Source: Kiritimatiellia bacterium (GTDB lineage Bacteria > Verrucomicrobiota > Kiritimatiellia > CAIQIC01 > Lenti-01). From it: a DNA stretch of 64,000 nucleotides. Below, piece after piece: positions 2,013-51,499 of the stretch (position 1 is its first letter; every line of letters starts with the position of its first letter). The stretch is from contig JAFTAH010000072.1 of the NCBI GenBank assembly GCA_017458625.1, positions 6,828 to 70,827 on the forward strand, given 5' to 3'. Made by a program: the position numbers and the translations under genes. The notes beneath the pieces were generated by a model. That model was given only the letters and a program-made list of their open reading frames with translations. It was not told the DNA's origin and did not search any database.

Positions 2013-2046
2013 TGGAACCCCTCCCCTTTGCCCCACTGGGACCATC

Positions 2047-2649
2047 CTATTGGCCCTTGAGCGCTTTCAGCACCTTTTCACGGTACTTTTCTTTGCCCAT
2101 ATTGCGAGCCGCATAATGAGGAATCTTGATGATTGGATACTTCCCGTCCTTGCCAAGATATTTCCGAAGGATGTCGTATGCATTGTCGCCCATGGCAACA
2201 AGCACGGGATGTTTTCCCAGAAACGACAGTTCTTCTTCAAATCTGCGTATGTTCCTTTTTGCTTTTTCGGGATGCTCCCTCAAGTGTTTCATCACCTCAC
2301 GAGAATTGCCTTCCACATGCTCTTTGATGACGTCGGTGAGGTACGATCCCCAGTATGGTGTATCCTGCAAGGCGAATCTCAACTTGAAATCTTTCTGGCG
2401 GCTATAGTCGCTGTGGAAATTCTTCCAGTCTTCCTTGAACCCTCCCTTCTGATTCCCCCGAGTGTTGGAGACATTCAAGCCGACAAACACAAACTTGGCC
2501 TTGAGAATGCGAAGAAGCCCGGCTTCATTGACCCAATCCATGGAGCCCGTATTCGAACTTGGTGTTCCGCCAGCTCGTTCCCATACCGCCCAACTGCCGA
2601 ATTTGCCATACTTCTCTTTCATGACGGCGTATGTGTCTTCCGTTATCAT
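2047..2649 (-). CDS. hypothetical protein (200 aa) in a low-GC (~45%) island; weak UDG-superfamily (MUG/TDG-like) pattern
   Basis: ATG at 2649, Lys/Glu-rich, clearly lower GC than flanks, AT-rich upstream region 2650-2750. FVFVGLNVSN ... VLVAMGDNAYDILRKY ... IKIPHYAARN loosely resembles the MUG motifs (VGINPG ... ILGKQAY ... LPNPSGL); the assignment is speculative. Confidence 0.55.
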   Translation of the reverse strand: MITEDTYAVMKEKYGKFGSWAVWERAGGTPSSNTGSMDWVNEAGLLRILKAKFVFVGLNVSNTRGNQKGGFKEDWKNFHSDYSRQKDFKLRFALQDTPYWGSYLTDVIKEHVEGNSREVMKHLREHPEKAKRNIRRFEEELSFLGKHPVLVAMGDNAYDILRKYLGKDGKYPIIKIPHYAARNMGKEKYREKVLKALKGQ

Positions 2650-2751
2650 AATATGCTCTCCGTTGTTCGTAATCTTGTGTCTATTTCAATTCGTTGTGGT
2701 TGTTGTGGTTGTTTTCATGAACTCGAAGCAGGTCCGGTTTCTTGTTGTTTT

Positions 2752-4053: not shown

Positions 4054-4182
4054 GTTTTGACTCCTGTGTTCTCGATTTTCCAAGTTCGTGATGGAAACCC
4101 GTATTGTGTTTTATCTCTTCTGGAGTGGGGCAATGAATTTTCGCTTTGCAGATGTCGGTTTTCCCGTCCTCCATTATCCTTT

Positions 4183-4300
4183 TGGCCGGACACCGTGTCC
4201 GTTCCGCCCTTCACTCAAATACTCGCCCGCCACCCTCAAAATCTTTCACCACCTGTCAAAAAAATTTGTCATGCTGGCAAAAAACGTGTGGACCATGCGA
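4183..4300 (+). repeat. copy 1 of conserved ~90-120 bp intergenic element (CACTCAAATACTCGCCC-N8-CAAAATCTTTCAC-N8-GACAAAAAA ... CGTGTGGACC)
   Basis: Near-identical blocks at 5412-5500 and 10765-10890. Confidence 0.6.
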
Positions 4301-4642
4301 AATGCCCCTGTCCCCCTGCCCGCGTTGAGCGCCCTTCCCCGGCCTGGCACGGCGGAACGGCATGCGAAATGCCAGAGTTTCCTGTTTGTTTCTTCGGAAA
4401 TCTTTCGGAAGTCATGCAATGAATTCTTCTGTAAAGTGGATGGAACTGCCGAATCCAAAACCCGGCTGCCATGACAATACTAACGGGGACAACCTACCGC
4501 GGCAAGACATTCAGGTTGCCACCGTGGCAAACTCCCGCCCTTTTGAAATCCCCTCTCTTCCCCATCCCAATCTCCTTTGTCCCCTCTGTGTTCTTTGTGG
4601 CTTTCCCTCCCCTCTCCGCGCCTCCGCGTCTCCGCGTGAGCT

Positions 4643-5026
4643 TCAATCAGAATCCACCAGAACAGGCGAGAAAAACTCTGCGACCGGCGCCTCCAAAAGC
4701 GCGGCGATGCCTGCGAGAAGCGGCGGCGTGGGGAAGCGCTGTCCGGCCTCCCACCGACTCCAGGTGCTGGCGGAAACGCCGAGTTCGAGAGCCGCGCCAT
4801 AGCGCTTGAGCCCCCGCGCCTCCCGGATGCGGCGCAAGTTGGCGGCAAATGTGCGGCGCATGGCGGCGTAGGCCGCCTCGCGGAGTTCCGGCGTCAGGGG
4901 CTTGACCGGTACTTGGCGCCGTCGCGGCGGCGTTCTCTTTTTCACGCCGTGCCTCCGGGATGCAGCCGTGGCGGGACGGCCCCCGCCGCCGCTCCGCCCG
5001 TCTGGCCTCTCTCTCCTGGTTCGCAT
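4643..5026 (-). CDS. XRE-family helix-turn-helix transcriptional regulator
   Basis: AANLRRIREARGLKRYGAALELGVSASTWSRWEAGQRFPTPPLLAGIAALLEAP is an HTH_XRE domain. The start is ambiguous: ATG at 5026, GTG at 4945 or ATG at 4861. The basic stretch GVKKRTPPRRRQ uses AAG/AAA codons, which favours it being coding. Confidence 0.7.
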   Translation of the reverse strand: MRTRRERPDGRSGGGGRPATAASRRHGVKKRTPPRRRQVPVKPLTPELREAAYAAMRRTFAANLRRIREARGLKRYGAALELGVSASTWSRWEAGQRFPTPPLLAGIAALLEAPVAEFFSPVLVDSD

Positions 5027-5411
5027 CCGGTTTCCTTCCGACCCGCCGTCCGCAAACGCCCCGACGCGGAAACCTGAGCGACAAAAAAAGCACGCCCACT
5101 GCTTCCATCCCCCGGGAGGCCGTAGGAAGTGCCTGGTGGAAAGACGGGAAAGCGGGGCGCGCGCACGTGCGCGCGTTCCCGAAGCGTCATTCCACCGTGA
5201 AATTTCCTACGTTTCCCGGAGCAACATCTTCGCGATTGCGAAACTCGGCTGTCTTCGCCGCGCGGCCCCGGAAGGGGCCCGGAGCCGTGCGGACGACCCG
5301 TTTGTACCCTGTCCCAATGGCCCCGTAAAGCAAAAACAGGCGGCGAAACGCCCCGCTTTCCCAAAATCTTTCCCCCGTTTCCGTCCATGGAGTTGCATCC
5401 TTTCCGTTCGC

Positions 5412-5500
5412 GGCCGGACACCGCGTCCGCTCCGCCTTCACTCCAATACTCGCCCCGCTCCCCGGAAATCTTTCACTTCCTCCCGACAAAAAACGCGCCC
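5412..5500 (+). repeat. copy 2 of the conserved intergenic element (CACTCCAATACTCGCCCC-N8-GGAAATCTTTCAC)
   Basis: Alignment with 4183-4300 and 10765-10890, including the shared GGCCGGACACCG(T/C)GTCCG(T/C)TCCGCC(C)TTCACTC head. Confidence 0.6.
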
Positions 5501-5779
5501 GGTTCCGCCAGACGCTCCCGCACCGCTCCGACCCGCAGTCTTGCCGTTCTCTTTTCTCCCCCCCGCGCGTCTCTGCGTTGAAAAACCTCACACCACCGAC
5601 AACGCATCCACGTTCACCCCCGCCCCCACCCCCTTCACTCCCGCCGCCCGCCTCATCGCCTCCCCCAGCACCCTCGACGCCTCCCTCCCCGCGCCCTCCC
5701 TTCGCGCCACCCTGCTTGGAGCGTCATCGTTGTTCCTTGCGCCCCCAAAAGTTCCACGCCATGGAAGTCGAATTCGGCC

Positions 5780-5876
5780 CCGCGCGCCCTGCCACGGCTA
5801 GGCCAGCATTCCCCACGCCGCCAGCAACCCCGCCAGGCGTTTGGCCCAACAACTTCTCCAACCCCGTCTTGCACAA
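5780..5876 (-). pseudogene. degenerate orphan copy of the N-terminal signal module (MKTRLHFHCARRGWRSCWAKRLAGLLAAWGMLA*) directly after family copy 1
   Basis: Reverse complement of 5780-5876 translates to a 33-aa peptide nearly identical at its start to the 79-aa module at 8832-9071 (MKTELHFHCPRRGWRNWAKHLAWLLPLW...). DNA at 5850-5960 is ~identical to 9046-9130. Confidence 0.4.
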
Positions 5877-5899
5877 TGGAAATGGAGTCGTGTTTTCAT

Positions 5900-6964
5900 C
5901 TACGGGAAGAGAAACGCCTTTTCGTAACGGAAAACATCAAGGTTTTTGAACAGGTTTTCGCTGAATTCGATGTTGCGGTCGTTGGGCACGGGATTGAAAT
6001 AATAGGAAAAATCGCCGAATCCGCCTTCCGTTCCGGGATGGGCTTCAACCTTGAAGTCCCTGTATATTTTCCCATAGTGGGCGGACACGACGTTGCCCTT
6101 TTCGTCCAATTGTGTCCGGACGCGCAAATAGAAACACCTGTCTTGGTTGGGCATCCACCCCCGCTCTTCCGCCTCGTCGTCCGACGGACAGGCGTAATAC
6201 CCCTTCCTCGTCAACCGGGGTTCGTACCCCGACTCCGGCGCCGTCCGCAAAAAGTGCCGGAACGTGTCCTCGGGCAGCAACACGGGAATGACGCCGTTCC
6301 CTTCGCCGGGAAACTCCACGTCCATCTGGAACACAACCATTTCGACGGTTTCATATCCCAGATAGGAAGAGACTTTTCTTTCGCCTCTCGATTCGCGGTG
6401 AATCGTCAACTCCATGTCGGGAATTGTTCCCTTCCCGTAAGGGGAAATCCAATCTCCAGCCTCCAAGTCATAGCCACAGGGACAATCCATTTCGGGGATG
6501 CGGCACCCCTCAAGATGCTTGGCGAACATCGGGACAGGCGTTCCCTTTTTGTTCAGCCGCAACTCCAAGGTTGGATTCCACGGCTGGAACCATGGAGGCG
6601 TTCCCCCCACGACGTTCGTGAAAACGAGGTCCCGCTCGAAACGGTAATACCCGTCGGGCTTGGATTCGACGATGACTTTGCCGCCATCCGCCATCGCCGA
6701 CATGGAACAAAAACCGTCTTTGTCCGTGCGTGCTTTTTTTTGCACGGGAGCGCCAAAACCCCAGCCTTGCCCCCTCTTCAGGGTCGTTCCGAAAAACGCA
6801 TCCACTTCCACCCCTTCCAACGCCGCCCCCGTGTCGAAATCCGTCACCCGGACCGTCACTTTCTGCAAGCTTGGGGCTGCAATCAAATGGACCGCCCCTT
6901 TCCATAACATTGCCACCACCACCCACGCAGGCAGCAACCACAACAAATGTTTAGTCCATTTCAT
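5900..6964 (-). CDS. secreted/membrane-anchored hypothetical protein, family copy 1 (354 aa; N-terminal signal anchor + carboxypeptidase-regulatory-like beta-sandwich motif VTVRVTDFDTG..EGVEV)
   Basis: ATG at 6964; MKWTKHLLWLLPAWVVVAMLWKG signal. ~75% identical to the 9072-10130 product. First ~110 nt and last ~85 nt are identical to the paralog, suggesting gene conversion at the ends. Confidence 0.75.
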   Translation of the reverse strand: MKWTKHLLWLLPAWVVVAMLWKGAVHLIAAPSLQKVTVRVTDFDTGAALEGVEVDAFFGTTLKRGQGWGFGAPVQKKARTDKDGFCSMSAMADGGKVIVESKPDGYYRFERDLVFTNVVGGTPPWFQPWNPTLELRLNKKGTPVPMFAKHLEGCRIPEMDCPCGYDLEAGDWISPYGKGTIPDMELTIHRESRGERKVSSYLGYETVEMVVFQMDVEFPGEGNGVIPVLLPEDTFRHFLRTAPESGYEPRLTRKGYYACPSDDEAEERGWMPNQDRCFYLRVRTQLDEKGNVVSAHYGKIYRDFKVEAHPGTEGGFGDFSYYFNPVPNDRNIEFSENLFKNLDVFRYEKAFLFP

Positions 6965-7369
6965 TCAATGTTCCTTTCTGCACCACAAGATCGAAGATTG
7001 ACTTCGTCTGCCTCCATGGCAACGATTTGGCAGCGGAGGTTTCGCGACCGCCGAACAGGAATCATTGTGGATTCCATGCCATGCCTGCACGCGTTAATCC
7101 TTGCTGGTTCAGGCCCCATGTTTGGAATCCCGGAGACAACTCCGTGTTTGTAGGGGTGGCACGGGCTGGGCGGCGATTCCCGGGACGCACCGCCCGCACC
7201 CCTGCGCCGCCGCGCCCACCGCGGCCGACGCCGACAGCAGCCCAGCCAGTGGCAGGCCCGCCGCCAGGGTCTTTTCATCTTGTCCAGCCGGTTCCTGCCT
7301 TCGGGTCCCAGGTGCACGGGCACTCCTCATCCTCTTTGTTTTCCGCTTTCTTTCCGTTCATTTTCGTTG

Positions 7370-8080
7370 TTATCTCCTCTTTATCAATCCTGAGCGCGGA
7401 CACGGCTTGCGGCACAACAACCAAATGCCAATCCCGCATGAAAACGCCAGACATGTCCAAACAATCGGCATGTACGGCTTTTTCCCTCCAGTCTCGGAAA
7501 ATGCCGTCATGCAGGGAGGGATTGTTCCGGTTGTTCCCTCCGTTTCCGGGGAGTTGGCAGATTCTTCTTTGTCCACCGGCTCTGCCCCCTCATTGTATAT
7601 TTTCCGATTCCACTGCTCCACCTCCCGCACTGCAGTATCTTTCGCGTGACGTTGCAAGTACCCCTGCAAGGGACTCTCGAACGGCCATTGGCACCACCGG
7701 AAAACCCGGGGACTCACTTTCCCCTCATCCGTGAGACGCGCCACCTCGAGCAAAAACGTTCCGAACTCGTCTTCGTCCATGTACCAGCACGAACACAACA
7801 CAAGCGTTTTGGACATTTCGTCCGGCGCCAACTCGTCCAAATGGGCCAGAGCCAAACGCCAAGACTTCGACAATTCCCTTTGCAGAGCCCTGAATTCGGG
7901 TTCATGGGAATATCGAGGAAGGATGTCCACCAAATCGCCCGCTTCGTTCTTGCGGCGTTCTCTTGCATAGCGCTCGGCGTCTCCAATTCGTGCGCGGAGG
8001 CTTTCCAAGCCCCCCCCATACGCGCTGAATGCAAGCGTCACCCAAGCCATGGCCACCAACCATTTCGAACATCTTTTCAT
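7370..8080 (-). CDS. hypothetical protein with N-terminal signal peptide and C-terminal TM helix (236 aa); candidate immunity/partner protein of the upstream amidase-like gene
   Basis: MKRCSKWLVAMAWVTLAFSAYGG signal; C-terminal IVWTCLAFSCGIGIWLLC TM. Start codon overlaps the stop of 8077-8835 (ATGA coupling). Confidence 0.6.
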   Translation of the reverse strand: MKRCSKWLVAMAWVTLAFSAYGGGLESLRARIGDAERYARERRKNEAGDLVDILPRYSHEPEFRALQRELSKSWRLALAHLDELAPDEMSKTLVLCSCWYMDEDEFGTFLLEVARLTDEGKVSPRVFRWCQWPFESPLQGYLQRHAKDTAVREVEQWNRKIYNEGAEPVDKEESANSPETEGTTGTIPPCMTAFSETGGKKPYMPIVWTCLAFSCGIGIWLLCRKPCPRSGLIKRR

Positions 8081-8835
8081 GGTACATATTTCCTGAATCC
8101 GGAGGTTCCGTCCAAAAATTCGTAGTATCGTTTATTAACGGTTCCAGAGGTTCCCGCGCCGATTCCTTCTCCGTCATAATCGACGATTCCAACATGTCCT
8201 GGCCCGCTTGGATCCGGATGGGCCACGATAAATCCCGGTTGAGGATAGGCAGTGTTCTCCAACAGCCAGTGGTCAATCGTGTAAACAAAAGGAAGAATGG
8301 GGTCTGTGGAGGCTGTTCCCGCCCACTGGTTGGCCGTCGGAGGATAATTGTGCAAATAACCATTGATGGCAGGGACGACGGCCCCTGCTTGGACAGCCCG
8401 GTGGGCAACGAAAATGTTGCATTTATAGGCACCGGCTGGAAATTCGGAAAATCCATAATCGGCAGGAACAACGCCTGCCAATGGATAATTGGTACTACCC
8501 AGCCAAGTCCTCGCCAATGCCGAAAAATCCACTTGGAACTGCGTGTCCGCCACACCGACGGCATCGGGATCTCCTACACACCCCAATCCATTGGGCTCTT
8601 CATTGCCTTTCCGCGTGTAAAGCCGTTCAAGTGCCATTGTTGCCGTCACGTGGAGAACGGCTTTCACCCGGAAAATGCCACTCAAATTCATTGCATGGGT
8701 GTAGGTTGTCCCATGCGCATCCGTCCCAAAGGAGGTCCAGTTATCCCAAGTGCCATCCCTCTTCCGGCGTTGATACATCCACGTCGGCTCATCGCCAAGT
8801 GGAACATAGGTGCCGGGATAAATGCCCGTTTTCAT
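8077..8835 (-). CDS. papain-fold (CHAP/NlpC-P60-like) putative amidase/peptidase, no signal peptide (252 aa)
   Basis: Cys in AGAYKCNIFVAHRAVQAG and His in GFIVAHPDPSGPGHVGIVDYDG, in the order and spacing typical of CHAP/Tae-like Cys-His hydrolases. ATG at 8835 overlaps the TGA of the preceding module ORF (ATGA). Confidence 0.55.
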   Translation of the reverse strand: MKTGIYPGTYVPLGDEPTWMYQRRKRDGTWDNWTSFGTDAHGTTYTHAMNLSGIFRVKAVLHVTATMALERLYTRKGNEEPNGLGCVGDPDAVGVADTQFQVDFSALARTWLGSTNYPLAGVVPADYGFSEFPAGAYKCNIFVAHRAVQAGAVVPAINGYLHNYPPTANQWAGTASTDPILPFVYTIDHWLLENTAYPQPGFIVAHPDPSGPGHVGIVDYDGEGIGAGTSGTVNKRYYEFLDGTSGFRKYVP

Positions 8836-9071
8836 GGTGACTTCGCTCCCATTGAGAAAAACGCCTTGACTTCGACTCCTTTCAAGGGCTCGCCCGTGTC
8901 GAAGTCCGACACCCTAACCGTCACTTTTCTCATCCCTGCCGCCAGCGATACGCCCGCAGCGCCATGCCACGCCAACATTGCCACCACCCACAGCGGCAAC
9001 AACCATGCCAGATGTTTGGCCCAGTTTCGCCAACCCCGTCTTGGACAATGGAAATGGAGTTCCGTTTTCAT
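8832..9071 (-). CDS. 79-aa ORF encoding only the shared N-terminal signal + beta-sandwich module (MKTELHFHCPRRGWRNWAKHLAWLLPLWVVAMLAW...KVTVRVSDFDTGEPLKGVEV)
   Basis: Homologous to the N-termini of 5900-6964 and 9072-10130. Begins immediately after the stop of family copy 2 and is translationally coupled to the amidase-like ORF. Confidence 0.45.
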   Translation of the reverse strand: MKTELHFHCPRRGWRNWAKHLAWLLPLWVVAMLAWHGAAGVSLAAGMRKVTVRVSDFDTGEPLKGVEVKAFFSMGAKSP

Positions 9072-10130
9072 CTACGGGAAGAGAAACGCCTTTTCGTAAC
9101 GGAAAACATCAAGGTTTTTGAACAGGTTTTCGCCGAACTCGACGTTCCGGTCGTTGGGTTCCGGGTTGAAATAGTAGCTGAAATCGCCGAACACTCCTTG
9201 CATGCCGGGATGGGGACTGACTTCGAAATCGCCGTAAATCTTGCCGTAGTGGGCCGACACGACATTGCCCTTTTCGTCCAACTGCGTCCGGACGCGCAAA
9301 TAGAAACACCTGTCCTTGTTGGGTATCCACCCCCGCTCTTCCGCATCGTCGTCCGACGGACAGGCGTAATATCCCTTCCTCGTCAAACGGGGTTCGTACC
9401 CCGACTCCGGCGCCGTCCGCAAAAAATGGCGGAACGTGTCCTCGGGGAGAAGAACGGGAATGACGCCGTTTCCCGCACCGGGGAACTCCACGTCCATCTG
9501 GAAAACGACCCCTTCGTAGGGACGGGGTTCAAGCCATCCCCCGTATGGTTTTTCTCCCTTCACCTCCTCGCGGCGGATGGCAAACAAAATGTCGGAGGTC
9601 TTTCCCTTTCCGAAGGGCGCCACCCAATCTCCCGCTTCCAAGTCATAGCCGCAGGGAACATCCGTTTTAGGTAGGCGGCAACACATGAGATGCTTCGCGA
9701 ACATCGGCACGGGAGTTCCTTTCCGGTTCAACCGCAACTCCAGCAGGGGATTCCAGGGCAAAAGCCGCGGGGGTGTTCCCCATGTCACGTTCGTGAACAC
9801 CAGTTTTCTTTCAAACCGATAATACCCTTCGGGTTTGGATTCGACGACCACGCTTCCCCCGTCCGCCATCGCCGATATGGAGCAAAGTCCCTCCTTGTCG
9901 GTGCTGGCGGTTTTCTCGACGGGCCCCTTTTTTCCAAATGCCTGTCCCCACATCGAGAAATGGACATTGACCCCAACGCCCTCCAACGGCTCCCCCGTCT
10001 CGAAATCCGACACCCGGACCGTCACTTTCTGCAAGCTTGGGGCTGCAATCAAATGGACCGCCCCTTTCCATAACATTGCCACCACCACCCACGCAGGCAG
10101 CAACCACAACAAATGTTTAGTCCATTTCAT
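9072..10130 (-). CDS. secreted/membrane-anchored hypothetical protein, family copy 2 (352 aa)
   Basis: ATG at 10130; paralog of 5900-6964 with identical N- and C-terminal ends. Its start overlaps the last 14 nt of gene X (10117-10529). Confidence 0.75.
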   Translation of the reverse strand: MKWTKHLLWLLPAWVVVAMLWKGAVHLIAAPSLQKVTVRVSDFETGEPLEGVGVNVHFSMWGQAFGKKGPVEKTASTDKEGLCSISAMADGGSVVVESKPEGYYRFERKLVFTNVTWGTPPRLLPWNPLLELRLNRKGTPVPMFAKHLMCCRLPKTDVPCGYDLEAGDWVAPFGKGKTSDILFAIRREEVKGEKPYGGWLEPRPYEGVVFQMDVEFPGAGNGVIPVLLPEDTFRHFLRTAPESGYEPRLTRKGYYACPSDDDAEERGWIPNKDRCFYLRVRTQLDEKGNVVSAHYGKIYGDFEVSPHPGMQGVFGDFSYYFNPEPNDRNVEFGENLFKNLDVFRYEKAFLFP

Positions 10131-10529
10131 TCGGTTCCGCCTTCGCGAAATCGGTCGTTCCCCGCCACAATTCCGCGCCGCTTCCGTCGCGCAACACCGT
10201 CGCCCCGCCCTCCCGCTCCGACGACACGGGCACCACCCACGTCGCCAAGTCGCGCGTCGCGGGGGCCGTATCCCATCGCGGCGAAAACTCCTCCCACGCC
10301 GCCGGCCATGTCCCCGCGTCCTGCACCAACTCCCCGTCCCCCGGCGTCATGCGCCGAAACTGGTTCCGCAAAATCTCCAGCCGCTCCGCGAAATCCTCCT
10401 CACCCAGCACCACCGCCTCGCCCGGCCCGTCCCCCGCCTCGTCGGCATCCCCAGCGGCAAACGACGGCGGAACACACAAAAATGCTGCAACACCAAGCCA
10501 ATCAACCAGCCCAATCTCTTCATGTGCAT
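10117..10529 (-). CDS. truncated and probably frameshifted paralog (gene X) of the partial gene at 63408->; secreted hypothetical protein
   Basis: In-frame segment VVLGEEDFAERLEILRNQFRRMTPGDGELVQDAGTWPAAWEEFSPRWDTAPATRDLATWVVPVS...TDFAKAEPNEMD* aligns with DIVVLGEVDLAERAEIWRNQYRRMTPGDGTFVQDVGAWPAAWEEFGSHWDAAPATRDLATWLVPVS...ATDFAKPESAN of the 63408 gene. The only ATG (10529, MHMKRLGWLIGLVL) is in the +1 frame; the homologous frame has no ATG near the signal-like segment, so this is a frameshift or non-canonical start. Confidence 0.4.
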
Positions 10530-10764
10530 CTTCCTGTGTACGCCGCTCTTCTCCACGCCCCATTCTCCCCTCTCCCCCCTCCCTCCCGCAAGCCCAAACT
10601 TCCCCTCCCCCCCATTTGTTCCCCTCCCTCCCCTCTGCGTCCCTGCCTCTGCGTTGAATGCCTCCCCCAATTCCCCCCGCCCCTCCCGCTACTCCCCCGC
10701 CTTGTCGGCGCACAGCCGCAAGCCCACCACGGACTTCCCCATCACGGCCCCGGCCCCGGCCCCG

Positions 10765-10890
10765 GCGCCGACGCCACTCCAATACTCGCCCCGTTTCCCG
10801 GAAATCTTTCACGTTCCGCGAAAAAATCATCCCCGTTTTTACAAAAGCGTTTCCCTTCCGTGCAATCCGTGTAGACCGTTTGCCCCTCGC
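10765..10890 (+). repeat. copy 3 of the conserved intergenic element (CACTCCAATACTCGCCCC-N7-GGAAATCTTTCAC ... CGTGCAATCCGTGTAGACCG)
   Basis: Alignment with copies at 4183-4300 and 5412-5500. The tail motif CGTGCAATCCGTGT also recurs at 16160-16185. Confidence 0.6.
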
Positions 10891-10918
10891 TCCGTGTCCG
10901 TGGACGGTCCGGCACCGT

Positions 10919-12070
10919 TCACATCCCGCCGCCCCACCGGAGCGTCTGCATCAGCGATTGCGTTTCTTCGTTTTCCCAGTAGGCGACAGCCGCTTCCAAC
11001 GCCTCTTGCAATTGCTTGCGGCGCTCTTCGTCTGCTGATGGAGCGTCCGCTTCCGACACTTCCGCCGTTTCCGGCGCTTCCCATGCCGTCGTCGTTTCCC
11101 GCAGGGCCGATGCTTCCGGGATTTCCGGTGCCGGAATCAGCCCTTGCGGGGCTTTCTCCCGCCCCCCGCTCCACAACCACGCCCCCAGCGCCACGGCCAG
11201 CGCGGCCGCCGCCACCGCCCACGCGGCGTTCCGCGCCCGGTGGCGGTGCCGGATTGCCCGCAGCAGCGGCTCCACGTCGGGATAGCGCTGCCGTGGCAGG
11301 GCCGCCGTCGCCCGCCGGATGATTTTCTCCCAGGCACGCGGCGGCTTGCCGCCGAAACACTCCTCCGCCAGCATTCCCAGCGCGTAGACGTCCGCCGCCG
11401 GCGTCGCCCCGGCGCCGGTGAACTGCTCCGGTGCCGAATGCCCGGGCGTCCCCACCCCCGCCTCGCGGCCGTCCACCACCGACGGCGACTCCCGTTCCGA
11501 CGCCGCCGTCTCGACCGCGTCGCCCGTCCCGACCGCCTTCAGCAGCCCGAAATCCGCCAGCACCGCGTGGCCGTCCGCCCGGCACAGGATGTTGCCGGGC
11601 TTGACGTCGCGGTGGAGCCACCCGCGCGCGTGCAACGCCGCCACCCCGGCGCCGACCTCCAGCAGGTATCGCGCCACGTCCGCGTCGGTCTCCGGCAATG
11701 GGCACTCGTCCAGCAGCTCCATCGCCATCCACGGCCGCCCCGACTCCTCCCCTGCCCCGTGGAAAGCGGGGAACGAAGGCATTCGGTTCTCCATCAAGAA
11801 CCGCGTCTCGCGCTCGAACCGCTCCCGCGGTCCCGCCCCGTCCCGCCACAGCACCTTCAGCGCCGCCCGCGTCCCCAGTCGCCGGTGTTTCGCGCAGTAC
11901 ACCTCCGCGTTCCCGCCCCGCGCCAGGAAGCCCGTCACCGTCCACTCGCCGACCTCCCGCCCATCCTCCCACACCCGCCCCGCCGCCTCCCCGCCGCCCA
12001 GGTCCGCCTCCCCCGACTCCGCCAGGTAGGCCGCCAGCAGCTCGTCGCTGTCATCGAATCCCGTCGACAT
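10919..12070 (-). CDS. Hanks-type Ser/Thr protein kinase with one C-terminal TM helix and a short extracytoplasmic tail; candidate ECF-sigma-associated kinase
   Basis: HRDVKPGNIL, DFG, SAPE and GK..ALKVL motifs. TM segment AAWAVAAAALAVALGAWLW. Overlaps the 3' end of the ECF sigma gene by 20 nt. Confidence 0.85.
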   Translation of the reverse strand: MSTGFDDSDELLAAYLAESGEADLGGGEAAGRVWEDGREVGEWTVTGFLARGGNAEVYCAKHRRLGTRAALKVLWRDGAGPRERFERETRFLMENRMPSFPAFHGAGEESGRPWMAMELLDECPLPETDADVARYLLEVGAGVAALHARGWLHRDVKPGNILCRADGHAVLADFGLLKAVGTGDAVETAASERESPSVVDGREAGVGTPGHSAPEQFTGAGATPAADVYALGMLAEECFGGKPPRAWEKIIRRATAALPRQRYPDVEPLLRAIRHRHRARNAAWAVAAAALAVALGAWLWSGGREKAPQGLIPAPEIPEASALRETTTAWEAPETAEVSEADAPSADEERRKQLQEALEAAVAYWENEETQSLMQTLRWGGGM

Positions 12071-16357: not shown

Positions 16358-16444
<87 letters not shown>

Positions 16445-16564
16445 ACTTCTTGGGCCCATCGGCTGAATCGCCGATGGCCATTTTTTTGTCCCCCGCCCCC
16501 CCTTCGCAGACACGAAAACCTCGAAAATCACTTGCTTTTCACGAAATCTCACGGCAATTCGAAG

Positions 16565-16612
16565 GGCTAGAATTCTAGTTTTCTAGACTTCTAGATTTCT
16601 AGGAAACTAGAG
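16565..16612. repeat. CTAG-periodic repeat R1 ((T)TCTAG-NN)x6, 8-bp period, AT-rich
   Basis: ctagaaTTCTAGttTTCTAGacTTCTAGatTTCTAGgaaaCTAG; lies between the convergent tRNA-Leu and iorB. Confidence 0.8.
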
Positions 16613-16691: not shown

Positions 16692-17276
16692 TTATCGCCC
16701 GAGCTCGAAGGACTGCTGGTTGAGGACGAGGAACCTCGGCTTGATGAGGTCGGGGAAGACGGCGGCCACGTCGGCTTCGGTCAGGCCCAGGGCTCCGGAG
16801 CGGACGGCCTGGCCCAGCAGGAAGACGTTGAGGACACGCGCGGTCCCGAGTTCGCGGCGGCAACGGTCGCCGTCGCACAACAGGAGGTGTCCGGGGGCGA
16901 CGGCCTGCCGCAGGTAGTCGCACATGGTCTTGCCGTCGTAGGTCTGGCCGGCCAGCAGGGCGACCGTCGGCATGACGGCCCCCGTATTGGCGACGACCTG
17001 TCCGTCCGGCTTGAGCCAGGGCAGCATGCGGACGGTCTCGCCGGGCTCGAAGCCGATGAGCAGGTCCGCCTCGCCGCGTCCGATGAGCGGCGCATGGATG
17101 GGGTCGTCGCCGAACCGGAGGTTGCTGTAGACGCTACCGCCGCGCTGGGCCATGCCGATGGTTTCGGCGCTCATGACGTGCCAGCCCTTCCGCATGGCCG
17201 CCGCCGCAATCAGCTTCGAGGCCAGGATGGTGCCCTGCCCGCCTACGCCGCACAAGATGACATTCCGTATGCTCAT
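16692..17276 (-). CDS. iorB: indolepyruvate:ferredoxin oxidoreductase beta subunit
   Basis: MSIRNVILCGVGGQGTILASKLIAAAAMRKGWHVMSAETIGMAQRGGSV (pyruvate/ketoisovalerate oxidoreductase gamma-like domain), 194 aa. ATG at 17276 overlaps the iorA stop (ATGA). The rest of the 819-aa track ORF is antisense noise over iorA. Confidence 0.85.
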   Translation of the reverse strand: MSIRNVILCGVGGQGTILASKLIAAAAMRKGWHVMSAETIGMAQRGGSVYSNLRFGDDPIHAPLIGRGEADLLIGFEPGETVRMLPWLKPDGQVVANTGAVMPTVALLAGQTYDGKTMCDYLRQAVAPGHLLLCDGDRCRRELGTARVLNVFLLGQAVRSGALGLTEADVAAVFPDLIKPRFLVLNQQSFELGR

Positions 17277-19135
17277 GCCTGCTGTTCTCCCTTCCCGATG
17301 GCACCGACGGGGCAGAGCCCCGCGCACAGCCCGCATCCATTGCATTGCGTCTCGTCGATGACGGCGAGCTTCCGTCCCGAATCCGGCCGCTCCCGCAGCG
17401 AGAGGGCAGGGCAGCCGAGCTCCTTGGCGCAGCGGCCGCAGCCGATGCACCGATCGGGGTCCACGCGCAGGGCGGGGCCCGGCTTCGCGAGCACGGCGCA
17501 GGGCGACCGGAAGACGATGGCCTTGACACCCGGCTCCGCCGCCACGCGCCGGACGGTCGCCACCGCCGCAGGCAGGTCGAGCGGGTCGACCGTCTCGACC
17601 GTCGCCAGCCCGATGCCCCGCAGGATGCCCTCGATGGACACTCGGGGGGCGACGTCGCCGCGAATCGTCCGCCCGGTGCCCGGGTGCGGCTGGTGGCCAG
17701 TCATGGCGGTGGTGGAGTTGTCGAGCACCACAACCGTCAGGTCGGCCCCGCTGTAGACGGCGTTGACGATGCCCGTCAGGGCCGAGGCGAAGAACGTGGA
17801 ATCGCCCACGAAGGCGAAGCAGGTCGTGTCGGGTTCGACGCGCCAGACGCCCTGCGCAAGGGCGATGCCTGCCCCCATGCAGAGGCAGGTGTCCACCATG
17901 TCGAGCGGCCGGGCGTTGCCCAGCGTGTAGCAACCGATATCGCCGCAAAACAGGCTCTTTTTCCCCTTCATGGCCTGCTTGACCGCATAGAACGAAGCCC
18001 TGTGCGGACACCCCGCACACAAGACCGGCGGCCGCATCGGCAGCGGCGGCGGCACGGGCGGCTCCACGGTACCGCAAGAAACCTCTCCATCCGCCAAAAA
18101 GTCCCGGAGATAGGCCTTGACGAGCTCGACCGTGTTTTCGCCGTTGACGCGGGTGGTGCGCGTCAGGCGGCCGATGATCTTCACGGGCAGGTGGTGCTTG
18201 CCCACCACCTTGAGCAGTTCCTCCTCGAGCACCGAGTCGAGCTCCTCCAGGCAGAGCACGATATCGAGGCCCTCCAGAAAGGCCAGCGCGGCCTTTTCGG
18301 GGAACGGGTAGGGCGTGCCCACCTTGAAGAGGCGCGGCGTCTCCGTACGGCGGTCCAGCTCGTCCAGCGCCAGCGCCCAGCTGATGCCGCCCGCCACGAG
18401 GCCCAGCCGTCCGAACCGGGCACCGCGAGCCGCCACGACCGCGTTGAACGGGCTGTCGGACAGCTCCGCCGACAGCTCCTCGTTGCGGCGCACCAGCTTC
18501 TCGTGGTTGCGGTAGGACAGTCCCGGAAAGATGACCCAGCGCTGCGAGTCCTTCACGAAGCCTTCCGGTGCCACCGGCGGCGGCAGCTCCTCGTCGTCCA
18601 GCACCTCGACGACCGAATAGGCATGGCATACCCGCGTCGTCGGCCGCAGGAAGACCGGCGTCCCCCGCGCCTCGGACAGCTCGAACGCGGCCCGCACCAT
18701 GTCGTAGGCCTCCTGCACGGAGGACGGGTCGAAGCAGGGGATCTTCGCATGGCTGGCGAACCGCCGCGTGTCCTGCTCCGTCTGCGACGAGATGGGGCCC
18801 GGGTCGTCCGCCACCATCACCACCATACCGCCCTTCACGCCGATGTAGGCCAGGCACATCAGCGGATCCGAGGCCACATTGAGTCCCATCTGCTTCATGG
18901 TGACGAGGCTGCGCGCCCCCGCGTAGGAGGCCCCGGCCGCCGCCTCCAGCGCCGCCGTCTCGTTCACCGACCATTCCACATGGACGCCCCGCTCGCCCGA
19001 CGGCGGCGAGAACTTCGCGACGTTCTCCAGCGTCTCCGTCGACGGCGTGCCCGGATAGCCCGCCGCGAACCGCACGCCGGCCGCCACCGCTCCCTTGGCG
19101 ATGGCCGCATTGCCCATCAGAAATTCCTTGTGCAT
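17273..19135 (-). CDS. iorA: indolepyruvate:ferredoxin oxidoreductase alpha subunit (TPP-binding, two C-terminal 4Fe-4S clusters)
   Basis: MHKEFLMGNAAIAKGAVAAGVRFAAGYPGTPSTE N-terminus, TPP motif GDSTFF...N, C-terminal CIGCGRCAKELGCPA and CNGCGLCAGLCP. ATG at 19135. Confidence 0.88.
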   Translation of the reverse strand: MHKEFLMGNAAIAKGAVAAGVRFAAGYPGTPSTETLENVAKFSPPSGERGVHVEWSVNETAALEAAAGASYAGARSLVTMKQMGLNVASDPLMCLAYIGVKGGMVVMVADDPGPISSQTEQDTRRFASHAKIPCFDPSSVQEAYDMVRAAFELSEARGTPVFLRPTTRVCHAYSVVEVLDDEELPPPVAPEGFVKDSQRWVIFPGLSYRNHEKLVRRNEELSAELSDSPFNAVVAARGARFGRLGLVAGGISWALALDELDRRTETPRLFKVGTPYPFPEKAALAFLEGLDIVLCLEELDSVLEEELLKVVGKHHLPVKIIGRLTRTTRVNGENTVELVKAYLRDFLADGEVSCGTVEPPVPPPLPMRPPVLCAGCPHRASFYAVKQAMKGKKSLFCGDIGCYTLGNARPLDMVDTCLCMGAGIALAQGVWRVEPDTTCFAFVGDSTFFASALTGIVNAVYSGADLTVVVLDNSTTAMTGHQPHPGTGRTIRGDVAPRVSIEGILRGIGLATVETVDPLDLPAAVATVRRVAAEPGVKAIVFRSPCAVLAKPGPALRVDPDRCIGCGRCAKELGCPALSLRERPDSGRKLAVIDETQCNGCGLCAGLCPVGAIGKGEQQA

Positions 19136-19300
19136 ACCTTTGTTTCTCCAACCCTGCTCACGGGGCGCGCCCCCATTCTCTGTTCCGCCCCGCCCCCCGT
19201 CAAGTCCCATTGCCGCGCCGTGCTCCCCTAGGCCCCGCACCTGGCCCCATGAGCAGCCGAGCACGGCCCGCCCCCCCAAAATCGCTGTGTCAGTTTCGTG

Positions 19301-19352
19301 AATTTTATAGAAAATCTAGACAATCTAGGATTCTAGGATTCTAGTTTTCTGG
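19301..19352. repeat. CTAG-periodic repeat R2
   Basis: aaaaTCTAGacaaTCTAGgaTTCTAGgaTTCTAGttTTCTgg; lies in the divergent iorA/ftsA intergenic region. Confidence 0.8.
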
Positions 19353-19459
19353 GGGGCAGGTGCCCCCGGCGGCAGGTGGCGCGACGCGTGCGGCTTGGGA
19401 GTTGCTCCGGGAGGTAGGCTTTGGTATTCTGCGGGGGTTCAACGAAAGCACCAAGGCGT

Positions 19460-36578: not shown

Positions 36579-37976
36579 ATGAAGGACATCCACTACATCA
36601 GCACGCGCGGGCAACAGGCCCCGCTTTCGTTCCAGGACGCGGTCATGACGGGTCTGGCCCGCGACGGGGGGCTGCTCGTCCCCGACGAGATTCCCGACGT
36701 CAGCGACCGGCTCGCCACGTGGCGGGACCTGTCCTATCCGGAGCTCGCCTTCGAGATCATGCACCTGTTCGCGACGGACATCCCGGAAGAGGACCTGCGG
36801 GGGCTGGTGACGCGCGCGTATTCGACGTTCATGCATCCGGCCATCGCGCCGGTGACCAAGGCGGGCGACCTCTGGATCCTGGAGCTCTTCCACGGGCCGA
36901 CGCTGGCGTTCAAGGACATCGCACTGCAATTCCTTGGCCAGCTCTACGCCTACATTCTCGAGCGGCGGGACGGACGGCTGAACATCCTGGCGGCGACGAG
37001 CGGCGACACGGGCTCTGCGGCCATCTGCGGCGTGCGGGGGCAGCGGCGCGTCAACATCTTCGTCATGCATCCGCATGGCCGGGTCTCGCCGCTCCAGGAG
37101 CGGCAGATGACGAGCGTGACGGACGCGAACGTCTTCAATCTGGCCGTGGAGGGTGCGTTCGACGACTGCCAGTCCATCATGAAGGCGCTCTTCAACGACC
37201 TGCCGTTCAAGGACGCCTATGCGCTGGGCAGCGTGAACTCGGTCAACTGGGCGCGCATTCTGGCGCAGATCGTCTACTACTTCTACGCGGCGTTCCGGGT
37301 GCAGGAGGAGACGGGGGCGGAGGCGGTGCAGTTCGCGGTGCCGACGGGCAACTTCGGAGACATCCTGGCAGGGTGGTACGCCAAGCAGATGGGGTTGCCC
37401 GTGCGGCGGCTGTTACTGGCGACGAACGAGAACGACATCCTGTCGCGGTTCTTCCACACGGGGCGCTACGTGCGGGGACAGGTGGTGCCGACGGTGAATC
37501 CGTCGATGGACATCCAGGTGGCGTCGAACTTCGAGCGGTGGCTCTACTACAAGCTGGGGCGCGACCCGGCGGCCGTCCGGGAGCGGATGGAGACGTTCGG
37601 ACGGGAGGGGGCCATGGAGATTCCGGTGCGGGGGGACGGGCCCGTCGACGTGGAGATCCGGGCGGGGGCCTCGGACACGAAGCACACGCTGGCGACCATC
37701 AAGAGGTACTTCGAGCGGTACGGGGCCGTCCTGGATCCGCACACGGCGGCCGGAGTGTTCGTTGCGGAGCAGTATGACGACCGCGAGGAGCCGACCATCT
37801 GCCTGTCGACAGCGCATCCGGCCAAGTTCCCCGCCGCCATCGAGCAGGCGACCGGACAGCAGGGACTGGCCCATCATCCCCTGCTGGATGCACTGGAAGG
37901 CCTGCCCACCCGGTGCGCCGTGGTGCCGAACGACGTGACCGCGGTGCGGACGTTCCTGGCGGAACATGCGCGGTAG
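36579..37976 (+). CDS. thrC: threonine synthase
   Basis: MKDIHYISTRGQQAPLSFQDAVMTGLARDGGLLVP N-terminus, PLP-lysine motif in FHGPTLAFKD. ATG at 36579 (the track's 667-aa ORF has a spurious 5' extension). Confidence 0.9.
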   Translation: MKDIHYISTRGQQAPLSFQDAVMTGLARDGGLLVPDEIPDVSDRLATWRDLSYPELAFEIMHLFATDIPEEDLRGLVTRAYSTFMHPAIAPVTKAGDLWILELFHGPTLAFKDIALQFLGQLYAYILERRDGRLNILAATSGDTGSAAICGVRGQRRVNIFVMHPHGRVSPLQERQMTSVTDANVFNLAVEGAFDDCQSIMKALFNDLPFKDAYALGSVNSVNWARILAQIVYYFYAAFRVQEETGAEAVQFAVPTGNFGDILAGWYAKQMGLPVRRLLLATNENDILSRFFHTGRYVRGQVVPTVNPSMDIQVASNFERWLYYKLGRDPAAVRERMETFGREGAMEIPVRGDGPVDVEIRAGASDTKHTLATIKRYFERYGAVLDPHTAAGVFVAEQYDDREEPTICLSTAHPAKFPAAIEQATGQQGLAHHPLLDALEGLPTRCAVVPNDVTAVRTFLAEHAR

Positions 37977-37984
37977 AAGCGGTA

Positions 37985-38038
37985 CAAGGATTCTAGGATT
38001 CTAGCAATTCTAGATATCTAGAAAATTCTAGTTTTTCC
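37985..38038. repeat. CTAG-periodic repeat R3
   Basis: gaTTCTAGgaTTCTAGcaaTTCTAGataTCTAGaaaaTTCTAGttttt; lies between convergent thrC and the 38045-39811 gene. Confidence 0.8.
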
Positions 38039-38044
38039 GGGGGG

Positions 38045-39811
38045 CTATCGCCCTTCCTGGGCGAGGCGGAGCGCGAGGCGGTACTGGCGGCGGAAGTGCT
38101 CGGTCCAGTCGCGGAGGAGATCAATGCGGTCGTGGCGCTTGAGGACATCGAGGGCGGTCAGCCAGTTGAGGGGCTCGGGAGCGTCGGGCAGGGTGGAGAA
38201 GGCGGCATAGGCCTCGGGGACGGCGTCGGGGCCGCCGGCGGCGGCGATGGCGCGCCAGGCGGCGCGCTGTTCGATGCCGGAGTCAAGGCACATGGCGCGG
38301 ACGAGGTCGCGGAGCATGCCGAAGTGGGTGCCGGTCCAGCGGACGCGATATTCGTAGGCGGCGGCAAGGACGTAGGCGTCGACGGCGGGATCGGCGAGGT
38401 CGCGGGAGGTGTAGCGGCGGTGGCTTTCGCAGGCGGCGGCGAACTCGGGGTCGGCGGAGGGATAGAAGTCGCGACGAATAGGCACGCGCTGGAGGGCGTA
38501 CTGGTTGGGCCCGCCGGGGGTGCCGGGGCGGTAGCACCAGAGGCGCTGGCCGTCGATGGAGAGGAGGTACTGGATGAAGCGGCAGGCGAGTTCGCGGTGG
38601 GGGGCGCCGCGCAGGAGGAGGACGGGGTCGGCGGAGACGCCGGACTCGCCGGCGGGGGTGCGGTAGTGCATGGGGCCATCTGCGCCGCGCGCACCGTTGG
38701 CGACCTCGGCCTCGAACAGGCCATAGAAGTCGATGCAGATGCCGGCGGCGGCGTTGCCGGTGCCGACGTCGAGGGGAACCTTGTTGGCGCTGTCGGTGAA
38801 GTAGCGGGCGTTGGCGCCGATGCGCTGGACGAGCCGAACGCCCTCGAGCCAGCCGCGTTCGACGGCGTCCTGGTAGGCGCGGGGGACGTCGGGAGGGAGC
38901 TCGCCGGGGGGGAGCTTGGCGGCGGCGATGGCGGCCTCGTAGGCGTCGGCCTGGGCTGGGGCGAAGCCGGCCGCCTCGACGGCCTTGCGGCATTGCACCT
39001 GGACGATGGTCTCGAAAGCCTTGGCGATGCTGCCGCTCTTGGTGGGGTCGGCCAGGCCCAGGGTGCCGCACCAGCGCGGGTCGGCCAGGTCCTCCCAGGC
39101 GGCGGGGTCGTCGGTGATGCCGAGGGCCGCCATGCGGTCGCGGTTGAAGCACATGCCGAAGGTGCTGAGGGTGGTGCCGTAGTAGGTGGGGCGCCACCAT
39201 ACCTCGCCGCCCACGTCGGAGGGAACGAGCTCGCGGCTGTCGGCGGTGGCGACGAGGCCGGGAGGGATGCGGTCGGCGGGCCAGGGGGCAACGGCGATGC
39301 CCTGCCGGGCCGCGGTATCCGCATCGTAGGTGCCGCCGCCAAACCAGATGTCCATGCCGGAGGTGAACGCCTGGGGATCGTCCGTGCCGCGGAAGGCCTC
39401 GTAGAGGGCCTGCTGCTCCTGCCAGTCGGACTCGGGCACGGCATCGGGACGGCGGGTCGGGTCGAACGAACGCGAGAGGATGATGCTGGCGCCATCGCCG
39501 CGCCAGGGACGTCCGGCAGCCTCCCACCACGCCTTGAAGGAGGTCACGAATTCGCTTTGGACGTAGCGGGAGATCTCCGTCGTGCCGCCGATGTTCCGCC
39601 AGTCCACCAGCGCCGGGCGGCCGTAGTGCTCCTGGTGCCACCGCGAGAAGCCTTCGCCGAACTCGTGGCGGATCGCCTCGTTGTGCGGCGAAACCACCAC
39701 CAGCACCGGGTCGCCCTCGCGCCACGCCTGGCCCTCCGGCGGGCACCGGAAGATGAACGGCAGCGCCACCACCGCCGCCAGCACCCCGATGATCACCACG
39801 TTCTTCAACAT
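38045..39811 (-). CDS. ABC transporter extracellular solute-binding protein (family 1-like) with N-terminal signal anchor
   Basis: MLKNVVIIGVLAAVVALPFIF anchor. Overall SBP-like composition and length (588 aa). Confidence 0.65.
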   Translation of the reverse strand: MLKNVVIIGVLAAVVALPFIFRCPPEGQAWREGDPVLVVVSPHNEAIRHEFGEGFSRWHQEHYGRPALVDWRNIGGTTEISRYVQSEFVTSFKAWWEAAGRPWRGDGASIILSRSFDPTRRPDAVPESDWQEQQALYEAFRGTDDPQAFTSGMDIWFGGGTYDADTAARQGIAVAPWPADRIPPGLVATADSRELVPSDVGGEVWWRPTYYGTTLSTFGMCFNRDRMAALGITDDPAAWEDLADPRWCGTLGLADPTKSGSIAKAFETIVQVQCRKAVEAAGFAPAQADAYEAAIAAAKLPPGELPPDVPRAYQDAVERGWLEGVRLVQRIGANARYFTDSANKVPLDVGTGNAAAGICIDFYGLFEAEVANGARGADGPMHYRTPAGESGVSADPVLLLRGAPHRELACRFIQYLLSIDGQRLWCYRPGTPGGPNQYALQRVPIRRDFYPSADPEFAAACESHRRYTSRDLADPAVDAYVLAAAYEYRVRWTGTHFGMLRDLVRAMCLDSGIEQRAAWRAIAAAGGPDAVPEAYAAFSTLPDAPEPLNWLTALDVLKRHDRIDLLRDWTEHFRRQYRLALRLAQEGR

Positions 39812-51336: not shown

Positions 51337-51499
51337 GTTTGGTTGCCTTGGCTGTGCCCCGCCTCAATCGGCTCGCCATCCAAAATGGCAACACGTTTTG
51401 CAGAGCACGAATGAATCATCCTTTCGTTTTTATCGTGCCATACACAAGGACAGCCCGCAACTGCAAAATCTGTTCGTGAAATCATGATATTTCTTCCGG

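Follow-up and report, generated by a model that had tools for sequence, protein, structure and literature searches.

Dispersed arrays of CTAG boxes in a Kiritimatiellae genome: possible members of a widespread class of protein-binding repeats

The stretch of DNA analysed here (64,000 nucleotides of contig JAFTAH010000072.1, assembly GCA_017458625.1; hereafter the window) comes from an uncultured Kiritimatiellae bacterium of the Planctomycetes-Verrucomicrobia-Chlamydiae (PVC) group and contains three AT-rich islands in which the tetramer CTAG recurs every 8 to 10 bp. We call these islands CTAG-box arrays and number them, and the sites at which they lie, from 1 to 3. The FtsA protein encoded in the window is identical to a protein of a Kiritimatiellae metagenome-assembled genome (MAG) at NCBI, and the locus recurs in many metagenome samples that also hold MAG sequences of ruminant-gut Kiritimatiellae. 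The arrays and the features around them are listed in Table 1. Array 1 sits downstream of the terminator of a tRNA-Leu gene and 80 nt beyond the stop codon of iorB. Since the tRNA terminator precedes it, the array is not needed for ending the tRNA transcript. The iorBA pair has array 1 past its 3' end and array 2 upstream. Array 2 lies in a divergent gap of 324 bp, 58 bp upstream of the -35 element of the ftsA promoter, and abuts a GC hairpin that has no U tract on either strand. The 68-bp gap between the stop codons of thrC (37976) and of the solute-binding-protein (SBP) gene (38045) is nearly all occupied by array 3. In a relative whose FtsA is 75% identical (L127), the ftsA promoter is conserved (TTGCTC-17-TATTCT, window 19402-19430) and a five-box array of 9-bp period lies upstream of it, beside another upstream neighbour gene.

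Table 1. CTAG-box arrays and neighbouring features of the window
Feature	Positions	Strand	Description
CTAG-box array 1	16565..16612	.	Six boxes, exact 8-bp period, 35% GC
CTAG-box array 2	19307..19352	.	Four intact boxes and degenerate edges, iorA/ftsA divergent gap
CTAG-box array 3	37985..38040	.	Five intact boxes and degenerate edges, convergent gap
tRNA-Leu(GAG) and terminator	16361..16486	+	Gene 16361-16444; canonical hairpin and T-run 16456-16486
iorB (16692-17276) and iorA (17273-19135)	16692..19135	-	Indolepyruvate/2-oxoacid:ferredoxin oxidoreductase pair
ftsA promoter, sigma-70-like	19402..19430	+	TTGCTC, 17 nt, TATTCT; ftsA start 19460
GC hairpin GGGGGGCAGGTGCCCCC	19351..19367	.	Abuts array 2
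thrC	36579..37976	+	Threonine synthase, 465 aa; stop 16 nt before first intact box of array 3
SBP gene	38045..39811	-	Convergent on thrC; stop 13 nt after last intact box of array 3

The units of the arrays stand head-to-tail and are separated by AT-rich spacers. In array 1 they read, in order, CTAGAATT CTAGTTTT CTAGACTT CTAGATTT CTAGGAAA CTAGAGGG, with CTAG starting at 16567, 16575, 16583, 16591, 16599 and 16607. The intact boxes of array 2 start at 19316, 19325, 19333 and 19341 (spacing 9, 8, 8), with in-phase degenerate edge boxes at 19307 (ATAG) and 19349 (CTGG); those of array 3 start at 37993, 38001, 38010, 38018 and 38028 (spacing 8, 9, 8, 10), with degenerate edge boxes at 37985 (CAAG) and 38037 (CCGG). 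Decay of the edge boxes is seen in all three arrays. The sequence TCTAGTTTT is present in each of them, and the extended box can be written T-CTAG-R, with 4-6 palindromic boxes per array. Alignment of the three sites and their flanks showed no extended homology beyond the CTAG units, except for a C-run common to sites 1 and 2, and the sites are thus not copies of a larger element.

The feature is real and statistically solid. The window contains 47 CTAG, 15 of which lie inside the three arrays. The expectation for the window is 209 on base composition and 71 under a Markov model of trinucleotides, and outside the arrays the tetramer is depleted 2- to 6-fold. A relative (L255) has no CTAG at all in 21 kb. 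The two-unit pattern TCTAGNNNTCTAG has 17 matches with at most one mismatch against 0.42 expected, and none of 100 shuffles reached 17. When all 256 tetramers were tested, several periodic arrays (at least 4 units) were found only for CTAG and its overlapping shift TCTA. The GC content is 64.6% for the window and 29-35% for the arrays, which are chromosomal and dispersed at about one per 20 kb.

An earlier note on this sequence had placed three islands at these positions and in these gene contexts (tRNA-Leu/iorB, divergent iorA/ftsA, convergent thrC/SBP), as inspection of the sequence bears out, and it was right that CTAG is under-represented. Its description of 5-6 units every 8 bp fits site 1, with six units at exactly 8 bp, but not site 2, with only four intact units, and the spacing at sites 2 and 3 is 8-10 bp. 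The units, which it took as TCTAGA palindromes, carry the full TCTAGA in 6 of the 15 boxes and TCTAG in 13, and the GC content of about 68% that it gave is too high for the window. Its family of three copies is far too small, as the family covers several phyla.

This breadth is seen in both collections that were scanned. Three TTCTAG units with a period of 8-9 bp had at least 120 matches in a collection of genomes, and an 18-mer common to sites 2 and 3 also had at least 120 in metagenomes, against about 15 by chance (a rough estimate that assumes about 1e12 searchable positions). Among the genome matches listed, most are from Bacteroidales (e.g. Prevotella, Muribaculaceae) and others from Kiritimatiellae, Victivallales/Lentisphaeria and Verrucomicrobia; many are degenerate-spacer arrays like those of the window, mostly of 9-bp and some of 8-bp period. 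The metagenome matches listed are mostly 8-bp arrays. A four-unit pattern gave 35 matches in viral contigs, nearly all of them perfect simple repeats. Among the arrays found, the period is 8 (336 steps) or 9 (111 steps) and rarely 7, 10 or 11, and the longest rows elsewhere have about 50 boxes. Several other Kiritimatiellae loci examined have no such array. We found no description of CTAG-periodic dispersed arrays, or of a link to four-helix-bundle genes, in the searchable literature; the repeat class is widespread and apparently undescribed, silence of the literature being weak evidence of novelty.

Other repeats adjoin CTAG arrays at some of the related loci. Four metagenome contigs (L138, L193, L155 and L210) carry a composite intergenic element, (GTGTTTGR)n, (CTAGGATT)n and (AGACGAGA)n, beside a GC hairpin, and this element is conserved in both orientations on several contigs. 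Elsewhere the 7-8-bp repeats GCCATAA, ATTAAGC and GTACCAC stand next to CTAG arrays. A Kiritimatiellae relative with a ThrC 82% identical (L253) has a three-box CTAG array beside a canonical bidirectional terminator (4929-4949) and a Y1 transposase gene (IS200/IS605 or RAYT-type; 8921-9898) directly upstream of thrC. On a metagenome contig of 63% GC (L219, 2211-2402), a (CTAGAACC)n array lies among (CCCTAA)n telomere-type repeats; this array is probably a eukaryotic subtelomere and outside the bacterial family.

A crude call of open reading frames (ORFs) placed 97 of 133 arrays in intergenic DNA and 16 in contact with a gene end; in 10 of these 16, the first CTAG provides the TAG stop codon of the gene. 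The gene contexts are tandem for 50 arrays, convergent for 21 and divergent for 9. In two Kiritimatiellae loci (L120 and L295), arrays occupy the gaps between co-oriented genes of type I restriction-modification (R-M) systems and stop just before the next ribosome-binding site. At another locus (L303-L315), the array lies between two terminator hairpins and a TTGACG/TATACT promoter, in a spacer that is probably untranscribed. The presence of arrays in transcribed operon gaps as well as in an untranscribed terminator-promoter spacer favours a role at the level of DNA rather than of RNA.

Conservation within the arrays is concentrated on the tetramer. In 104 arrays of at least 6 boxes, the core CTAG is intact in 94% of steps, a figure inflated to some degree because the arrays were ascertained through CTAG runs, whereas neighbouring spacers differ at 35% of positions; a core drifting like the spacers would be intact in 18%. 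The broken cores are mostly CTGG or CCAG (15 of 40). The flanks are symmetric, a T preceding the core (position -1) in 64% of boxes and an A following it (position +1) in 74% (sense strand, co-directional gene pairs), which yields a TCTAGA-like dyad, and strand polarity is weak (CTAGAA over TTCTAG on the sense strand, 30 versus 16 arrays). A palindromic core with symmetric flanks and free spacers is as expected for recognition of the duplex by a symmetric dimer, whereas an RNA-binding protein does not need these properties.

Our preferred interpretation, which we put forward tentatively from the sequence pattern and from analogy, is that the arrays are close-packed binding boxes for a symmetric DNA-binding protein and that their size changes as that of a minisatellite does. 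The arrays of the window are solo members of a widespread intergenic class of CTAG-box arrays. The boxes would be read as duplex DNA by a protein of two-fold symmetry, one dimer per box, and the dimers would pack side by side at 8-9 bp, in the manner of ParG at parH, of MetJ at its met boxes and of TrpR at tandem CTAG half-sites. An AT-rich island of about 45-50 bp would thereby become a short protein-coated segment, which at site 2, 58 bp before the -35 element of ftsA, could serve as an operator or boundary and would lie within the convergent gaps at sites 1 and 3. Slippage would change the number of boxes, and selection or binding-dependent drive would keep the CTAG core. Such arrays may also insulate as protein roadblocks. 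Candidate readers are ribbon-helix-helix (RHH) proteins, as on a Paludisphaera plasmid, and the four-helix-bundle suffix proteins described below. Of the options that the earlier note had raised, a row of sites that a dimeric regulator or a nucleoid protein would bind is the best supported, on grounds of analogy and sequence logic.

A close geometric parallel is a plasmid centromere. The parH/OF region of plasmid TP228 consists of 8-20 degenerate tetramer boxes with regular 4-bp AT-rich spacers and an 8-bp period, and the RHH protein ParG binds it with one dimer per box and with flexible box orientation (PMC3130281). The 8- and 9-bp periods of the CTAG arrays match this packing of ParG at 8 bp (PMC3130281). 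As in parH, tetramer boxes with AT-rich spacers stand several in a row in the window, at exactly 8 bp in array 1 and at 8-10 bp in arrays 2 and 3. Unlike parH, the box is CTAG rather than ACTC, the arrays are chromosomal and dispersed with no parA/RHH gene nearby, and related arrays elsewhere show 9-10-bp periods and up to about 48 copies. The arrays thus share the ParG type of tetramer-box geometry, and their binding by an RHH protein is putative. A BLAST search of array 1 against plasmids matched plasmid PALBO2 of Paludisphaera borealis (Planctomycetota), where 22 of 58 CTAG lie in five clusters within 2 kb, every spacing in this cassette being a multiple of 8. The boxes (L313, 14470-16470) surround parA, a gene whose 107-aa product has an RHH-like C-terminus, and an RHH gene of the CopG family. 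The layout is that of the TP228 parH/OF sites, and the region is probably a type Ib partition site that uses CTAG boxes.

MetJ and TrpR offer further parallels. The met boxes of MetJ, (AGACGTCT)n, are tandem 8-bp units whose junctions read TCTAGA, so that CTAG recurs every 8 bp, and 2-5 units are bound cooperatively by RHH dimers. In met-box register, array 1 reads AGAATTCT, AGTTTTCT, AGACTTCT, AGATTTCT, AGGAAACT, and 4-7 of 8 positions per unit match AGACGTCT. The CTAG recurrence and this partial match are shared with met boxes, but the centres of the array units are AT-rich and lack the central ACGT, the contexts (tRNA/iorB, iorA/ftsA and thrC/SBP) are not those of methionine genes, and the host belongs to the Kiritimatiellae, while MetJ is to our knowledge confined to Gammaproteobacteria. 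A met-box operator proper was therefore rejected on both consensus and context. TrpR reportedly binds in tandem to CTAG-centred half-sites 8 bp apart, and this core and this spacing of successive dimers are also those of the arrays. The two differ in that the TrpR consensus has ACTAGT in GNACTAGTNC where the boxes of the window read TCTAG(A/G), and in that TrpR operators are 2-3 sites at trp/aro promoters, not dispersed arrays.

The other candidate reader came from the neighbourhood of the arrays. Among the matches listed, and with orthologous loci that were recovered repeatedly set aside, genes of the four-helix-bundle suffix type (TIGR02436 and TIGR04258) are the only family that recurs beside arrays at unrelated loci. 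Arrays flanked these genes at each of the 12 distinct loci inspected (e.g. L120 3183-3827, L295 4001-4666, L303 2501-3193 and L317 2001-2681), often on both sides with units shared in direct orientation, and often inside type I R-M operons. In several of these loci, the TAG stop codon of the gene is the first box of the downstream array. The suffix protein scores 29 bits against TIGR02436 (cutoff 24) and 58 bits against TIGR04258 (cutoff 40), whereas its 25.6 bits against the Pfam family 23S_rRNA_IVP are under the Pfam cutoff. Its predicted structure is a four-helix bundle, for which the best Foldseek matches are 2GSC, 2RLD and the Avd chain of a diversity-generating retroelement, with weak E-values (none at or below 0.001), probabilities of 0.77-1.0 and target-normalised TM-scores up to 0.83. 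The link between Avd and the 23S-IVS family has been described (PMC10053308). By score and fold, the array-flanked gene is a member of the Avd/23S-IVS family (PF05635, TIGR02436). It differs in that it lies neither beside a reverse transcriptase or template/variable repeats nor within rRNA, in that the C-terminus of its protein is a conserved basic stretch, GGIRERMTAARLGRR, with a coiled coil after it, and in its flanking CTAG arrays, for which no description was found in the searchable literature. The family comprises over 7900 clusters, with about 80% identity between members from different phyla, and lies mostly on contigs of about 1 kb; the arrays probably break metagenome assemblies, most contigs with a cassette being no longer than that. 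Cassette arrays and window arrays are alike in having CTAG boxes, a period of 8-10 bp, variable spacers and a non-coding location, but the window arrays have no such gene beside them.

At 5280-5900 of locus L112, a four-helix-bundle gene with a frameshift stands between two CTAG arrays, the first of which follows a tRNA gene, and a direct repeat of about 27 bp that contains the promoter-like TTGGTATAAT brackets all four. This arrangement hints at an insertion or a duplication. In the window, array 1 likewise adjoins a tRNA gene.

It is conceivable, though in our judgment unlikely, that the suffix protein (an Avd/23S-IVS-type bundle with a basic and coiled-coil tail) binds TCTAGA-like boxes, that its gene travels among gut PVC bacteria and Bacteroidota as an array-flanked cassette lodging in operon gaps, notably those of type I R-M systems, and that the hundreds of solo arrays per genome, including the three of the window, are its dispersed binding or docking sites. 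Under this reading, the arrays and the protein that reads them would form a system not recognised before, and the arrays would make up a new class of dispersed repeats in bacteria.

Several observations weigh against the interpretation of the arrays as protein-binding boxes. The contexts of the arrays were not clearly different from those of background intergenic gaps in the same loci (p = 0.057, the convergent bias being only a trend), and this resemblance leaves no clear tie to promoters or gene ends. The ascertainment through CTAG runs mentioned above takes some force from the conservation of the core. The box number at a single locus (L303-L312; L303 coordinates 2300-2480, between a terminator and the promoter of the four-helix-bundle gene at 2501) ranges from 12 to 48 across samples; blocks have been duplicated and deleted, and the few kinds of spacer are G-rich and 4-7 nt long. 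Against a strain with 98.9% overall identity, array 3 shows about 7 differences in 70 positions, including two in cores (CAAG/CTAG and CTAG/CTCG, the intact boxes still being five); this divergence is about ten-fold above that of the flanking DNA and has the look of rapid turnover under weak constraint. Within genomes and even inside one array, 8-bp and 9-bp periods occur together, a mixture that a rigid cooperative filament would not easily accommodate. Near the three arrays, no ParA or RHH gene was found, the small ORFs of the window gave no RHH match, and neither tblastn nor iterated hidden Markov model searches found a suffix gene in the window.

Strain variation, decayed edges and the 12-48 boxes at one locus indicate a quick turnover of the arrays, like that of minisatellites. 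The window arrays keep a constant number of units in all strain variants seen and carry substitutions. The arrays might be selfish or near-neutral hypervariable minisatellites without cell function, in which CTAG is kept since turnover itself depends on it, through breaks or nicks at CTAG or through 4-bp microhomology. In favour of this account are the block duplications and deletions described above, the runs of identical variant units seen in related arrays, decayed edges such as ATAG, CTGG, CAAG and CCGG, the excess divergence of array 3 over its flanks, a distribution like that of intergenic gaps in general and the absence from several other Kiritimatiellae loci. This account is nevertheless doubtful, as spacers change at 35% of positions and cores in only 6% of steps, the flanks are dyad-symmetric, the arrays persist where genomes deplete CTAG (to zero in 21 kb of L255), they are specifically associated with par/RHH and four-helix-bundle genes, and the repeats of viral contigs are mostly of the perfect simple type and not of the degenerate-spacer type. 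We give still less weight to the idea that the arrays are cis sites (docking, recombination or regulatory) of a horizontally spreading suffix cassette, with solo arrays as empty targets or as scars left when a cassette was lost by recombination between its flanking direct-repeat arrays. The arrays at 12 of 12 cassette loci, often on both sides with shared units in direct orientation, the stop codons that form the first downstream box in several loci, the lodging inside type I R-M operons and the size of the family, with similar sequences across phyla on contigs of about 1 kb as expected of a repeated mobile unit, agree with it. It is quite unlikely, since the gene adjoins only about 7% of arrays, is absent beside the 8-bp GGATTCTAG-type metagenome arrays among the matches listed, and is missing from the window; moreover, no recombinase is linked to the arrays, and the flanks of the window arrays show no extended homology. 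The readings overlap; if the cassette encodes the protein that reads the boxes, the cassette account and the binding-box account would become one.

The earlier note had regarded the elements as possible bidirectional terminators, and UCUAGA hairpins followed by U runs would be RNA structures able to act as terminators or insulators. Two of the three arrays do lie between convergent genes, the gap at site 3 has no other candidate terminator, TCTAGTTTT is common to all three arrays, and sites 1 and 2 fold better than shuffled sequences (z -2.2 to -4.8). This proposal has become very improbable, because shuffled sequences fold as well as site 3 (z -1.3 and -0.9), the hairpins of the arrays are AU-rich stems of 4-6 pairs, and scans for terminators (a GC-rich stem of 5 bp or more with a U tract after it) found none at any array, the sole one nearby being the canonical terminator of the tRNA-Leu gene itself at 16456-16486, before array 1. 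A canonical terminator follows only 5 of 67 arrays downstream of a gene, site 2 falls in a divergent promoter region, and related arrays occur between co-transcribed genes of type I R-M operons and between terminators and promoters. Intrinsic termination was rejected on these grounds. A link to CTAG-specific restriction-modification, methylation or very-short-patch-type repair would be in keeping with the 2- to 6-fold depletion of CTAG outside the arrays and its absence from 21 kb of a relative, with the predominance of CTGG and CCAG among broken boxes (15 of 40), with a core that is a type II-like palindrome and with the several cassette loci within type I R-M operons. This link is highly unlikely all the same; the type I association runs via the four-helix-bundle gene and not via CTAG specificity, and we know of no R-M system that requires phased arrays of its site. 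Equally remote, in our estimate, is an RNA-level element in 3' untranslated regions and intercistronic gaps, in which (C)UAG repeats would be bound by a multimeric protein. TRAP and HutP bind spaced UAG/GAG triplets, and Avd-family proteins are nucleic-acid-binding pentamers; many arrays start at or within a few nt of a stop codon in transcribed gaps, and CTAGAA is slightly in excess over TTCTAG on the sense strand (30 versus 16 arrays). Against such an element stand the palindromic core and flanks, which RNA recognition does not need, the arrays in untranscribed spacers upstream of promoters and the lack of an Rfam match.

Further candidates were rejected. In the Rfam search of the window, only tRNA-Leu passes, and at E-values up to 1 only noise was seen over array 1, so that no known RNA family is matched. 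A larger mobile element of the repetitive extragenic palindrome (REP) or miniature inverted-repeat type has no support, as there is neither a conserved palindrome nor conserved flanks, the homology being limited to the CTAG units and the C-run at sites 1 and 2. The arrays resemble REP/BIME elements and the STRR heptamers of cyanobacteria in being dispersed, non-coding, multi-copy and lineage-specific and in lying in operon and convergent gaps. They differ from REP/BIME in having no imperfect palindrome of 20-40 bp with a GTAG/CGTC head and no conserved flanks, and from STRR in that a 4-bp core and a free spacer take the place of the fixed heptamer. A minisatellite of homogeneous units does not fit changes that concentrate in the spacers (35% per position, as opposed to cores broken in 6% of steps). 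Coding repeats are excluded in the window, where a period of 8 bp brings TAG into every one of the six frames and no array falls within the gene calls, and a six-frame stop barrier fails as a general role because many related arrays have a 9-bp period, with all TAGs in one frame. A CsrA-type GGA sponge is not supported, GGA being present only in CTAGGA units. Rho uses about 12-13 nt per subunit, and a YC spacing of 8 nt does not fit a rut site. CTAG is the target of IS630, and no data were found in support of IS630/IS5 targets or excision footprints. Promoter elements were rejected since the -10-like TAGAAT hexamers (minus strand) point antisense at sites 1 and 3.

Other repeats of the window were noted as well. 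A TTTC-NN-GAAA motif, TTTCGTGAA/TTCACGAAA (of the same dyad frame as TTTCTAGAAA), lies beside arrays 1 and 2 at 16538-16552 and 19292-19304, and also in AT-rich intergenic islands at 10801-10861, 51390-51505 and 63330-63376. Four tandem 32-bp units at 1872-2011, each with the palindrome GTTTCCATTG-NN-TGGAAAAC, sit where the truncated C-terminus of a glycogen phosphorylase (1357-1998) meets a stretch of lower GC. The same palindrome adjoins the CTAG array upstream of ftsA in L127 (2892-2915) and probably represents a second family of regulator sites in this lineage. The lower-GC stretch (about 2000-11000) contains a diverged direct duplication of about 1.1 kb (5854-7000 versus 9026-10135; 63-93% identity) that spans ORFs without Pfam matches, a 63-nt repeat in three copies (4187, 5414 and 10750), an HTH_31 gene and an FGE-sulfatase gene, and it looks like an acquired or rearranged island.

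If the interpretation as binding-box arrays is correct, the CTAG arrays would represent a dispersed chromosomal form of the tetramer-box architecture so far known from plasmid centromeres and a few operators. The link to the suffix genes gives the abundant four-helix-bundle (Avd/23S-IVS) family a first testable cis partner, and the hypervariable arrays could serve as strain markers. Even if the arrays are neutral minisatellites, the retention of a tetramer that the genome otherwise avoids still needs a mechanistic explanation. If they bind protein, they would be relevant to many gut and rumen Bacteroidales and PVC bacteria, in which gene regulation and chromosome organisation are poorly known.

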